Source: Candidatus Ruthia sp. Cpac_8_S14
GTDB taxonomy: Bacteria > Pseudomonadota > Gammaproteobacteria > PS1 > Pseudothioglobaceae
Length of the DNA stretch: 64,000 bases
Direction of reading: 5' to 3'
Assembly (NCBI GenBank): GCA_021730205.1
Contig: CP072533.1
Coordinates: 585,380-649,379, forward strand
Part shown: positions 443 to 4,104 of the stretch, piece after piece
Layout: every line of letters begins with the position of its first letter
Numbering within the stretch: position 1 is the first letter of the stretch
Notes under the pieces: generated by a model
Told to the model about the DNA's origin: nothing
Databases searched by the model: none
The model's input: the letters and a program-made list of their open reading frames with translations, nothing else
Made by a program: the position numbers and the translations under genes

Positions 443-456
443 TGGCTCCCCGAGCT
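443..456 (-). repeat. att core: displaced copy of the tRNA-Asn 3' end (AGCTCGGGGAGCCA)
   Basis: Direct repeat of the last 14 nt of tRNA-Asn including CCA, with one A/G mismatch that still pairs as G-U in the acceptor stem. Confidence 0.75.
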
Positions 457-630
457 ACTCTTACTACGAACCGTGGTTTTTTATATTCCTGACACATTTA
501 AAAAAAAGAGACTCAGAAACGCCAATATTTTCACACTTCAAGATTGGGTAAATACTAACGGCGGACTAATGCTTGATTTGTCTTTATAAAGTGTTAGTTT
601 AGGAGTTTGGTTAGCAGCTAGATATTGTGT

Positions 631-1530
631 CTAGTGTTTAGATTTATATGTTTGTGAACATATAAAGGTTAATCTGTTCAAATAGTGGGTTTTTTTGAAC
701 AGTTGTGAGAATATCGCAGCCACAACATTAACAGTAACCCGCATTACCACAGCACTTGTATTTTTGTCTATTATCGCTAATCTTTTTGCCCTCAGCACCA
801 AACTTAGTTCAATCGTCAAAAAAACCTTGCAACCGCTCGCTTTCAATAGGCATCAACTTACGAATACGATTATTGATCAACATGCCGTGCTTATCTTGCG
901 CAGTAAGAGTAAAGCTTAGTTCGTTGCTTATTTAATCTATCGGATGTTAGTACTGGCACGGCGTAAAGAGCAGTCTTAGGACCACCACCTAATGCTGATT
1001 GAGTTGTGGCCAAGCCTGTCGGGCAATAAACATGATTACCTTGAGAGTCACTAGCTAACTACACCATGTGATTGCTATGCGTCTTTGTTAGCACATAACT
1101 AATACCATCTTGTCTGCTTAGAATGCCAGAGCCGCCCTTGTTATTATTTTGCTTATCACGCAAGCCACGCTTCGCATTAAAATACATCACTTTTGGTTCA
1201 ACAAATTTATTAAGAGCAGGTGCCAGCCCGAATGGGTTGTATACACAATCCTAGTAATAAGACTGTGTACCGCCGTTGCTTTTTAAAATTGCTTTTAACC
1301 CCCTCACCCCTGTTTATCGCCAGTGTCGGGCATAGTCCATTAGTATTGAATATCTTGCCATTTGCACTGTTACTACTTGGGTTGACATTGCCTAAATGAA
1401 TACCCGTTCTCTATTTTGTGGCACGCCAAAATCTTTACTATTAAGCACTTGTCATTCGACAAAGTACCTCAAACTCATCAAACGTGTTGACGATATGCTT
1501 AAACATTGAACTGAAGAATGTAGTTGTCAT
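631..1530 (-). pseudogene. DNA (cytosine-5)-methyltransferase, C-terminal two-thirds
   Basis: Hand translation across lesions gives QVLNSKDFGVPQNRERVFI (motifs VII-VIII, ~1396-1447), AFTLTAQDKHG, RIRKLMPIESERLQGF (IX, ~820-870) and KYKCCGNAVTVNVV (X, ~720-770). Several stops and frameshifts; motifs I and IV not found. Confidence 0.85.
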
Positions 1531-1560
1531 CATTAGCACTCAATAGGTCGCTAAAACTCT

Positions 1561-1904
1561 CTATTGAATTTTAAGCATTTTCATACCCAAGCCATCGCTA
1601 ACTTGATAGCGCACATTAATGACATACGTCTCATAGAGTATTAAATCATTTAACTGTTCAGTAGGATGAAACAGATCATTCATTGAATTCACAAAATAAG
1701 TAGTGGATTTTTTACGTAAAAACGGCTGTGGTAATCCGCTCATGCAGTAGTGTTAATTCAAAACCATTGTCATAGCCGTAAGCGCCCATTGCCTTTAATC
1801 TTTTAGACACTTGCCTCGGCGTAGCAATTTTTACAACCTGACGATACTTTAGTGCATCCAACGGTTGGATTCTAAGCTTTCTCTGCCCATTCTATTTTTG
1901 ACAT
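1561..1904 (-). pseudogene. DUF5131 / phage Gp37-Gp68 family (radical-SAM-like) protein, truncated
   Basis: RBS gaggag then [30 protein letters not shown], then KRLKAMGAYGYDNGFELTLLHE, then QPFLRKKSTTYFVNSMNDLFH. These are the family's three-Cys and FVNSMSDLFH motifs. Confidence 0.8.
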
Positions 1905-2076
1905 GCTGGGCGCTCCTCTTTTACATTCTCAGAATTAATCTCAGCTCTTGATAGCATTTCTAAAATCTCTTATCTTTATTTATCTGTGTCGTTATCAGTT
2001 GAAAAGTAAGGTATTTCAAACGCCAAAGAGATGTCTTTAACGTTTGGTTTAATTGTTAAAACTATTCTATATATCA

Positions 2077-3450
2077 TTACTTTTTCCCTTCAAAAACCCA
2101 GCAATGTAAAACCTTTGTTTGCAATTTTTGAATTCACCTTTTTTATTGCAATAAACTTATGGCGCTTACTGTCACGCAGACTTCGTTGCAGCGCAACAAT
2201 GTCTATTTGCTGTCTGCGTTTATTAGCAAAGTCTTTAAAGTAATTGAGATTAATGGCAATCTTCTCTTTAGGGTCAAAATGATTAAGATTAGATCTGGCA
2301 AACTGGCAAATTCGACCATACTGTTAGAATTAATAACATCCTCGTTGTAACTTTCGTAAAAATTCCAAGACTGCTGAACAACTAAAGTGTCTGAGCTACA
2401 ATCACACTGACGCTTAACTACGCGTTCAACAATAAAACTGTCCCAATTCTTTAGCACCTCGTTACTACAGTTGTGGCACAATTAATTGCAAAGCTTTTCC
2501 AAGCGCCATAACTTGAGCATGGGTCTCAGCAATACGCACTTCATTAATTGTCTCTTTGCGTAGTAAATAATATACTTATCTTGATAAACTTATATAATCT
2601 CACCCTCGTGAACCAAAGCATCATGCAAAAATTGCACACACTATTCGATGGTGTGTGTTTTTAACCGATTAGCGAACGGGCGTAGGTCTCGTTATTAAAA
2701 TGAGCCTTGCTTGCTGCGCATTTAACGATTCGGCTGATAATTTGTGGCGCACCTTCAACGGCAGCATTTTGAGAAATCACAATAGTACCTAAGAATGGGT
2801 CGTTGCTAGTTTCAATGTCTTTATTCTTAATCGTTCTACCATAGGGCTTTTTCACTCTGAATAAGATTTTGATTTGATTCATAGAGAACCTCTTGCAATG
2901 ATCGTTTTCATTACGATCGCTCTCAAGCATTACTACTGGTATATTAAACGCCTGCATCATGGTACGTACTAATGCCACAAAGCTCATTTTCTCTGGATCT
3001 TCACTTTTATAGTTTCAACGGCCAGTTAATCGTCACAAAAATCAATATGCTCACCCCTGCAACACCGGTATATTCCCAAAAAAGAATGCTGCCATGACAA
3101 CTTCTAACTTGTTATGCAAACAAACTCATAAGCCAAAAGGGTAGGCCTGTTAGTGTATTATTATCACCCGCTAATAGAGATCATCAAACCAATTTGGGTT
3201 AGGGGAATGTGTAGCATCCGTTAAAAACTGTTTTAATAGCCTGATTACCAATTTACACGTAGTCGTGTGCTTATTGATGAAGTATTTAGCCATCTTTGCT
3301 TAACACGAGCCTCAACTATGCCCTATGTATAACGCTCTTGAACTGTATTAGTAACAAGCTTTTGTCTGTGAAAATAAACTGCACCACATCACCACTCTCA
3401 AAACAATTAAAGTAGTCGTTCTTAACGCTAAACGACATATCACCACGTGT
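2077..3450 (-). pseudogene. Toprim primase-helicase of P4/PICI-type satellites, helicase/C-terminal half
   Basis: Fragments WLMSLFA..HGS..WEYTGVAG (degenerate Walker A region), NIPVVMLESDR, PFLGTIVISQNAAVEGAPQIISRIVK, THAQVMALGKALQLIVP, NHFDPKEKIAINLNYF and terminal HCWVFE. Order and motifs match satellite primase-helicases as I recall them. Confidence 0.65.
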
Positions 3451-3456
3451 TTAAAA

Positions 3457-3726
3457 TTACACATCGTTTATCTGCTTAAGATTATCAATCTCGTTTATTT
3501 TTTCCTTTAATTCTCGCTCCAGTTTTTCTCTAGTAGGGTCATAGTTATCGCCTCTCAATTCTAACCTGAGTATTTCTGGGTTTATAAACTTTATATTTGG
3601 TTTTAATGTTTGAAAATCGCTATTTTCAATTGAATATAAATATGTAGTTTCGGGCCCGTTTGCATTCCAGATTTCAAATTGCACGCCTTCAATTTCAACT
3701 TTTAACATCGTGGCTAATAAATCCAC
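3457..3726 (-). CDS. Hypothetical protein within the island
   Basis: 89-aa ORF, co-oriented with the island genes, charged C-terminal helix; no family recognised. Confidence 0.4.
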   Translation of the reverse strand: MDLLATMLKVEIEGVQFEIWNANGPETTYLYSIENSDFQTLKPNIKFINPEILRLELRGDNYDPTREKLERELKEKINEIDNLKQINDV

Positions 3727-3779
3727 ATTCTCGCAGTCACAAAGTTCATCTAATAATCAAATTTTAAAACCAGAATAAG

Positions 3780-4028
3780 AAATGGAAAATCTTTAGCGTA
3801 CAATTGAGTCTGGAAATTTACTAGATAATAAAAAAAATTTAAAAACAGAGCTTTCAAAAATTAGAACGCCTAAAAAATTGCTAAACTCATGACAAAAATG
3901 TTGCAAAAACTCATATTTCAAAAAAATTTTTATCAATGTTTATTGAAAATTAGAATATCTGGTGATACTGTAAAGGTGTCTATCCAGACAAAATCACTTC
4001 AACGTGTTCGATTCATAGTGAGTACGAT
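3780..4028 (+). pseudogene. Possible C-terminal remnant of a large serine recombinase reading into the att site
   Basis: Charged coiled-coil-like fragments, then KIRISGDTVKVSI...VRFIVS, running into the tRNA 3' end. This layout is typical of integrase C-termini. No catalytic motif seen. Confidence 0.3.
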
Positions 4029-4104
4029 TGGCTCCTCGAGCTGGGCTCGAACCAGCGACAAATGGATTAACAGTCCATTGCTCTACCAACTGAGCTATCG
4101 AGGA
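4029..4104 (-). tRNA. tRNA-Asn (GTT)
   Basis: Reverse complement tcctcgatagctcagttggtagagcaatggact-gtt-aatccatttgtcgctggttcgagcccagctcgaggagcca folds as a 76-nt cloverleaf with CCA. Confidence 0.97.

Follow-up and report, generated by a model that had tools for sequence, protein, structure and literature searches.

What came to occupy the interval between aspC and the tRNA-Asn gene of Candidatus Ruthia sp. Cpac_8_S14, and which enzyme put it there? This locus lies near the start of the stretch analysed here (CP072533.1, positions 585380-649379; 64,000 nucleotides (nt), hereafter the window), which belongs to a single-contig genome of 1,184,132 bp with 36.6% G+C. We conclude that interval 443-4028 of the window, the island, is very probably the remnant of a prophage that derives from a temperate phage. 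The genome has no second copy of the island's interior, and base composition is uninformative on its origin (G+C 36.5% in the island, 36.6% in the genome). We compared the source genome (G000) with congeners that include G001-G006 and G008-G011, and with a family-level relative, G096. Two of the congener genomes measure 1,022,154 and 1,160,782 bp; PMC3202245 gives 1.02 and 1.16 Mb for two published genomes of vesicomyid clam symbionts. Scans of short open reading frames (ORFs) of the window against Pfam and PHROG were mostly blank, so that genes were sought instead by family searches in six frames and by tblastn from intact homologues.

A displaced copy of the tRNA-Asn 3' end marks the integration boundary

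Four features define the two attachment sites (attL and attR) of the island:

4029-4104, minus strand: tRNA-Asn(GTT), intact and single-copy (ARAGORN), 100% identical to the tRNA in G009, G010, G011, G006 and G003
4029-4042, minus strand: attL core with the native A, within the tRNA-Asn 3' end
443-456, minus strand: attR core, a copy of the tRNA-Asn 3' end with the phage-type G (AGCTCGGGGAGCCA in tRNA sense), assigned from the repeat, the empty-site junction and the invariance of CGGGGAGCCA in related phages
457-472, minus strand: phage P-arm half-site, with the GGTTC motif and spacer of the inverted repeat of the phage attachment site, attP (GGTTCGTAGTAAGAGT in tRNA sense)

The gene at 4029-4104 is the sole tRNA-Asn among the 36 tRNAs of this genome. 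Its last 14 nt (TGGCTCCTCGAGCT on the plus strand, 4029-4042) reappear in the same orientation, with 13 of 14 positions identical, as TGGCTCCCCGAGCT at 443-456; on both strands of the whole 1,184,132-bp genome this is the only copy of the 14-mer with no more than one mismatch, and from shuffles of the window 0.09 matches are expected at up to two mismatches. Read on the minus strand, GGTTCG and 10 further nt come before the copy, and this GGTTCG-N10 motif is kept in the islands of G010 and G011 and in the attP sites of related phages.

The original prediction, made from this DNA alone, proposed that an element had integrated at the tRNA-Asn 3' end, had left both att ends readable and had since eroded, and it suggested aligning the region from aspC to tRNA-Asn in relatives. 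In the window, aspC ends at 385 and is followed by its terminator; G002 and G009 have empty sites, in which the terminator leads through ATTAA straight into the tRNA-Asn 3' end. The left flank of the window aligns with both genomes through the 14-mer and diverges right after it. Because homology with the empty sites breaks exactly there, the 14-mer is the true integration boundary, and the repeat, the empty sites and the dead genes within the island together bear the proposal out. With an intact tRNA gene and its displaced 3' copy, an empty site and a recombinase, the island is a mobile element integrated at a tRNA gene.

The one mismatch in the repeat identifies the provenance of each copy. 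The tRNA at an empty site had been expected to end in AGCTCGGGGAGCCA, with G; we found instead that it ends ...TCGAGGAGCCA, with A, in all empty sites, and A is also present in the other remnants at this junction (G003, G006) and in the Clade-I-type tRNA. G is invariant at this position in the att core of eight related phage contigs. Thus, G and GGTTC-N10 are phage features. The A of the tRNA is native, and the exchange took place 3' of that base: the reverse of the earlier idea that the element had restored the tRNA with its own A.

Related viral contigs place the attachment site inside a serine recombinase gene

Another key observation concerns a gene for a large serine recombinase (LSR), remnants of which, all on the plus strand, lie at either end of the island; the original prediction had overlooked them:

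443-514, plus strand: displaced 3' tail of the LSR gene, reading WLPELLLLRTVVFYIPDTFKKKRL (compare the free-phage tails WLPEHALLGTIKLNVSLPQKLCKAA and WLPERDLLGTKVIKLDLPEKLQKKAA)
3751-4028, plus strand: remnant of the 3' body of the LSR gene, running antisense into the tRNA (..YPDKITSTCSIHSEYD/WLLELGSNQRQMD and a stop), assigned by synteny with G011

We searched viral contigs with the GGTTCG-N10 pattern and with a profile made from two LSRs. The pattern search yielded one contig, IMGVR_UViG_3300022221_000252, which reads GGTTCGTAGTAAGTACAGCTCGGGGAGCCA and is identical at 27 of 30 positions to GGTTCGTAGTAAGAGTAGCTCGGGGAGCCA of the window; in a collection of this size, by a rough estimate, a pattern match by itself might be fortuitous. 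However, the same contig has genes for homologues of the G011 tyrosine recombinase (41%, E 9e-68) and of the G011 LSR fragment (E 9e-11). Its P' arm no longer shows the inverted repeat, and, judging by its sequence, this copy may be unable to integrate. Between its LSR gene and attP there are an IS256/mutator-type transposase and a two-gene cassette (L054 5197-6405).

The LSR profile search yielded eight viral contigs, in all of which CGGGGAGCCA is invariant when they are aligned at the LSR 3' end. Five of the eight have a free attP, GGTTCNNAGT-N10-CGGGGAGCCA-N9-ACTNNGAACC, which lies inside the LSR 3' end (the last ~30 codons); in the other three, which are proviruses, N9-ACTGNGAACC and the LSR gene adjoin a complete tRNA-Asn with the end ...CGGGGAGCCA. 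The islands have kept the P' arm too: the sequence directly 3' of the tRNA (ATTGTACTCACTATGAACCG in G011) matches free attP. Across the eight contigs and the islands, att is within or adjoins the LSR 3' end. The contigs have in common a cassette of primase, Xer-like tyrosine recombinase, a ~165-residue protein, LSR and att; by eye, the C-terminus of the ~165-residue protein is helix-turn-helix (HTH)-like. A scan of genome contigs for the att pattern gave no match, and a profile search of genome contigs with the tyrosine recombinase returned only relatives at 29% identity or less.

These contigs show what integration does to the LSR gene. In free phages the core (TGGCTCCCC) codes for W-L-P of the LSR and is followed by a tail of ~25 residues; in proviruses the ORF continues antisense into the tRNA and ends ...GSNQGPAD at a stop. 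Integration exchanges the last ~25 LSR residues for ~11 that are encoded by antisense tRNA-Asn. When the ends of our island are joined at the core, a single LSR C-terminal frame results, as in the free phages (..PVHSEERWLPEHALLGTIKLNVSLPQKLCKAA). The body remnant shares 68% DNA identity with the tRNA-proximal block of G011, which runs upstream into Recombinase/Zn-ribbon fragments, and it has a motif-level match to LSR C-termini. BLASTP of the 112-residue tRNA-proximal ORF of G011 against intact LSR was not significant; similarity lies just past its stop codon. In the UViG2 LSR, the Resolvase, Recombinase and zinc-ribbon domains are all present. We also considered whether a hairpin at 463-477 is a terminator; it is no commoner than in shuffles, and its bases are better explained as codons of the LSR tail and as an attP arm.

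Orthologous islands preserve different parts of the element

Islands at the same site measure 3.6 kb in the source genome, 5.8 kb in G010 and 8.3 kb in G011. The latter two are its nearest congeners (96% and 94%, respectively, for aspC; 97% and 96% for icd), as against 83-93% and 86-90% for these two genes in other congeners. All three islands have the same flank, an att remnant with the same variant, and interior blocks that are 75-91% identical; these blocks are less alike than the flanking genes, as is to be expected of dead DNA. The att remnants on the aspC side read TGACTCTCTGAACT in G010 and TAGCTCCCTGAGCT in G011, both with the C of the window (G in tRNA sense); since every lineage-specific change in them is from GC to AT, the window retains the ancestral att remnant.

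The window and G010 have a deletion junction in common, at ~560-567 of the window, where 1.9 kb were lost that G011 has kept. Beside its tRNA, G011 keeps LSR fragments (PF07508, PF13408); adjoining its attR is an Xer-like tyrosine recombinase that is full-length but frameshifted (PF00589, E 6e-19). Near the region of the first catalytic Arg of this recombinase (L011 12400-12460) is a (GT)n-derived insertion, LIGTGTGTGTGARVSG versus LLGCGLRISG.

The extra segment of G010 (2.76 kb) is flanked by blocks held in common with G011 and is therefore part of the same element. It contains a piece of a large terminase, which is 49% identical (E 9e-39) to the 582-residue terminase of IMGVR_UViG_3300022221_000252 and also matches the 'DNA packaging protein' of Microcystis phage yong1 (E 2e-27), together with a piece of a Mu-I-like head protease (51% identity, E 3e-22) and ParB/methylase pieces. 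The window itself has no packaging or head gene left; those pieces come from G010. From these pieces we conclude that the ancestor was a phage that had packaging and head genes; different scraps have survived in each lineage.

Inside the window's island the following were found:

2089-3438, minus strand: phiCTX-type primase-helicase pseudogene, with a CHC2 finger at 3355-3435, then residues ~474-888; ~400 codons deleted
1660-1901, minus strand: DUF5131 (Gp37/Gp68) pseudogene (PF07505, 48 bits, E 8e-13), of which only profile positions 2-85 are left
740-1508, minus strand: C5 cytosine DNA methyltransferase pseudogene, with the N-terminal ~120 profile positions gone and internal stops
3457-3726, minus strand: an 89-codon open frame, orphan and possibly spurious, the only one of that length in the island

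The original prediction had described a 'satellite-type' primase-helicase, a DUF5131 gene and a C5 methyltransferase, co-oriented and broken; the three genes are genuine, broken and all on the minus strand, and it is the satellite type that is not supported. The primase-helicase is identified by tblastn with an intact 889-residue homologue, P0001 (E 6e-62), which covers residues 42-71 and 474-888, residues 72-473 being deleted; the remnant has several stops and frameshifts, and its Walker A motif is destroyed. It is also matched by tblastn with an 815-residue homologue from IMG/VR, and by phrog_1139 (E 5e-18). The DUF5131 remnant is 81% identical over 21 residues (tblastn) to a second copy in G011, and its ORF fragment matches PF07505 at E 0.003. 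The methyltransferase matches PF00145 at 1377-1508 (37 bits, E 1e-9) and at 740-907 (20 bits, E 2e-4). The second G011 copies of these two genes form a slightly broken pair in a variable region (G011:C1:535016-537409), where their neighbours are HipA-like, ParA-like and another C5 methylase gene, and the two genes behave as one mobile module. As to the 89-codon frame, it lies in the part of the island with the lowest G+C; it has no homologue among 5.8 billion proteins, Pfam and PHROG are blank, DNA searches gave no counterpart in G010 or G011, and it folds poorly (AlphaFold predicted local distance difference test, 47).

A phage, a satellite or a composite

The original prediction took the element for a PICI/P4-like satellite (PICI, phage-inducible chromosomal island). 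To a satellite remnant, be it P4-like, a PICI or a capsid-forming PICI, we now give only a slim chance. The island is small today and combines a primase-helicase with a recombinase, and in G046 an island of ~10 kb has a homologous primase-helicase and a P4-type integrase, without virion genes. The primase-helicase itself speaks against a satellite: P0001, a protein of G096, aligns end to end with phiCTX orf37 (32% identity, E 2e-113), whereas P4 alpha is no detectable orthologue, its match being confined to the Zn-finger/Toprim region (E 0.028). P0001 matches 40 phage records, mostly P2-like phages, and it sits in a prophage with an integrase at tRNA-Glu, a cI-like HTH protein, baseplate genes, Ogr/Delta and a ClpP-type protease. 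(This prophage, G096:C1:575600-587000, is P2/Mu-like and partly deleted, and has truncated Dam and C5 methylases; its host genome, 1.47 Mb, is of free-living size.) The primase-helicase closest to the G011 fragment, at 67% identity, is encoded beside a tape measure protein on a 28-kb viral contig that also has terminase and portal genes, and contigs of relatives bear tape measure or baseplate genes.

A PICI measures 10-15 kb, has int, a regulator, pri-rep and packaging genes but no tail genes, and depends on a helper; capsid-forming PICIs, too, have terminase, portal and protease, which is a point in favour of a satellite. Remnants of head and packaging genes, with none of tail genes, would suit a PICI, and it counts against a phage, as weak evidence, that among the ORF fragments of three heavily deleted islands there was no remnant of a tail or lysis gene. 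Set against this, the att-sharing relatives sit on viral contigs of 41-61 kb, and by a rough estimate the intact lengths of the genes seen across the three islands sum to ~14-15 kb or more. Hallmark families of P4 and PICIs (Psu, Sid, Delta, epsilon, AlpA, terS) did not turn up in Pfam/PHROG scans of ORF fragments, the sensitivity of which is limited. Nor was a P4-type arm-binding integrase seen: the G011 recombinase matches PF00589 only, and its relatives have a SAM-like N-domain. The terminase and head-protease pieces, the phiCTX-type primase and the relatives on phage contigs together favour a prophage remnant over the satellite originally proposed.

Two differences from the att-sharing contigs sit uneasily with descent from a phage of their kind: their replication module is of another type than that of the island, and the orientation of the LSR gene relative to the tyrosine recombinase is inverted in the islands compared with all eight contigs. 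We therefore regard the ancestor as a mosaic relative of these contigs, and not as the same phage. The different replication module might instead be explained by a tandem composite at a hotspot, in which an LSR phage lay by the tRNA, an element with the primase, DUF5131, methylase and tyrosine recombinase lay by aspC, and the att site between them has since been deleted. The site is indeed a hotspot, as the G006 island and the tRNA fragments of G003 (see below) attest. Yet the G011 tyrosine recombinase, a remnant of the ~165-residue protein (read from a translated ORF) and the LSR all match a single contig cassette, the outer ends of the island join into a single LSR ORF, and there is no internal copy of att; we consider such a composite slightly less probable even than a satellite.

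Which recombinase integrated the phage

Bearing in mind that both an LSR and a tyrosine recombinase are candidates, we favour, by a little over even chances and from sequence comparison, a full account in which the prophage remnant owes its position to the LSR and not to the tyrosine recombinase. By this account, conservative site-specific recombination would have inserted a temperate phage at the 3' end of the sole tRNA-Asn gene, in the common ancestor of the source genome, G010 and G011. Strand exchange would have taken place 3' of the single A/G difference, within GGAGCCA, in the last ~6 nt of the tRNA; the acceptor stem would thus have remained that of the host gene, and no more than the final few bases of the tRNA would be of phage origin. 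Integration would have split the LSR gene, its body staying beside the tRNA and its tail beside aspC. The tyrosine recombinase and neighbouring DNA would then have been deleted in the ancestor of the source genome and G010, and later lineage-specific deletions and frameshifts would have reduced the islands to their present sizes.

The geometry of the site is what draws us to the LSR. The inverted-repeat arms GGTTCNNAGT and ACTNNGAACC are 29 nt apart and lie at about positions 15-24 of the half-sites; from the start of GGTTC to the dyad centre there are 24 nt in attP and 19 nt in the tRNA. In the serine-integrase model, the zinc-ribbon motif occupies positions 16-24 in attP and 11-19 in the chromosomal site, attB (PMC3783163); the displacement of GGTTC from 24 to 19 nt reproduces the 5-bp attP/attB shift of that model. 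The products observed agree with the position of the central GG/GA, which is the same in attP and the tRNA and lies 2 nt on the 3' side of the A/G difference. At 10-15 nt, the common core, which tolerates a mismatch 2 nt from the centre, is short beside the 25-76 bp of tRNA sites used by tyrosine integrases (PMC8092301). Finally, the LSR gene always adjoins att.

Several observations weigh against the LSR. The chromosomal right half-site (TTAATGCGAGAAAA...) is almost without a match to the motif. The two arms of the inverted repeat coincide with LSR codons (for VHS and LLGT), and their conservation may in part reflect constraint on the protein. Every relative examined has both the LSR and the tyrosine recombinase, and covariation cannot assign att to either. 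The body remnant in the window is a weak match by sequence (tblastn E 2.1), synteny with G011 being the ground for its assignment. Moreover, no integrases other than those of the tyrosine family are known to use tRNA genes as targets (PMC4383910; PMC5704250), and elements with serine recombinases usually disrupt dispensable genes (PMC5704250). With both recombinases present in every relative, and with the arms inside a coding region, the role of the LSR as integrase is something that we infer, with the balance about even.

It is unlikely, though by no means negligible, that with the same prophage remnant and the same boundaries the Xer-like tyrosine recombinase was the integrase, and that the LSR served for inversion, resolution or control of excision. 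Apart from the precedent at tRNA genes, the G011 tyrosine recombinase adjoins attR and has the orientation of the primase module, like int and attP in phiCTX, and it is conserved in all relatives examined. It has, however, only a SAM-like N-domain and lacks an arm-binding domain; no closely spaced inverted repeat of core type was seen about a 6-8-bp overlap, the conserved repeats being those that are 29 nt apart; and its position relative to att varies, whereas that of the LSR, with attP inside its ORF, does not.

We give an even chance to a broader reading, in which the island represents a family of temperate phages whose LSR would integrate into a tRNA gene, using the GGTTC of the T-loop as the left zinc-ribbon motif of attB, with crossover in the last 5-6 nt and the CCA end rebuilt; attP would lie in the 3' codons of the LSR gene, the swap of the LSR C-terminus would possibly act as an integration-dependent switch, and the window would hold a fossil of such an integration in a reduced symbiont genome. 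Such a switch could follow from the exchange of tails seen in the contigs.

Timing and significance

The original prediction placed the insertion before or early in the restriction of the lineage to its host. This is not supported: the island is present only in three closely related genomes, and in more distant congeners the site is empty or occupied by something else. Most simply read, insertion occurred within one sublineage, and the tyrosine recombinase was lost before G000 and G010 split.

Other congeners illustrate the traffic at this junction. In G006 (G006:C1:844200-861000) a different, apparently intact 16-kb island is present, with an att remnant of ~12 nt, a P4-type integrase (with arm-binding domain) by the tRNA, an MmeI-type restriction-modification enzyme, UvrD-like and DEAD helicases and a T5orf172 protein; because it holds this intact defence island, the aspC/tRNA-Asn junction is a landing pad that is still active. 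G003 has a 35-nt fragment of the tRNA-Asn 3' end beside aspC (G003:C1:313058-313092) and, ~300 kb away (G003:C1:609956-622023), a 56-nt tRNA fragment 12 kb from the intact tRNA; the fragments suggest that two more elements, with longer att cores, were inserted and that the chromosome was rearranged between them. In ~1.0-Mb genomes (G001, at G001:C1:402500-405300, and similarly G004, G005 and G008), 2.4-2.6 kb separate tRNA-Asn from aspC; the spacers (2.4 kb in G001) contain an intact ORF for a 419-residue coiled-coil protein and no att remnant.

A preprint reports prophage fragments to be absent from most of these symbiont genomes (10.64898/2026.10.22.761039). The island shows that an eroded prophage does exist among them, and so that a lineage of vertically transmitted, genome-reduced symbionts of the clam type was lysogenised. 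As such, the fossil is ordinary, a dead prophage at a tRNA gene. A serine integrase at a tRNA gene, unproven as it is, would be unusual: if the LSR integrates, it would be an exception to the rule that only tyrosine integrases target tRNA genes, and the set of such enzymes would gain a compact serine integrase that is directed to a tRNA gene and has legible attP and attB sites.

Comparison with known systems

P4 and P4-like elements resemble the island in integrating at a tRNA gene and in having a large primase-helicase as replication protein; the island differs in that its primase-helicase matches alpha in the Zn-finger/Toprim region only, in that neither P4 hallmark genes nor a P4-type arm-binding integrase were found and in that virion-gene remnants are present. 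Closer in its replication gene is phiCTX (Citexvirus, P2-like), which integrates at the 3' end of a tRNA-Ser gene: it has the orf37-type primase-helicase, and the order primase, accessory genes, tyrosine recombinase and att, all co-oriented, is the same. The recombinases, however, are unlike each other: the G011 tyrosine recombinase, considered as a relative of phiCTX int, has no similarity to it, and phiCTX is without an LSR. The packaging and head pieces of the island, too, are of the Mu-I and Microcystis phage yong1 type and not of the P2 type.

With Islander-type prophage remnants and islands at tRNA genes, ours has in common an intact tRNA, a displaced 3' fragment, an empty site, recombinases and decay by deletion. 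It differs in that the identity block is only 14-15 nt long with one mismatch, in that attP lies within the LSR ORF and in that the att geometry fits serine integrases. The known serine integrases, such as those of phages A118/LI, Bxb1 and phiC31 (att model of Rutherford et al. 2013), target protein-coding genes, whereas here a tRNA gene is the target and its 3' end is rebuilt; attP is here inside the integrase ORF, and an Xer-like tyrosine recombinase always accompanies the LSR. What these phages and the island have in common is an attP of ~50 bp with inverted repeats at ~15-24, a motif 5 bp nearer the centre in attB, an integrase gene that adjoins attP, and the LSR domains.

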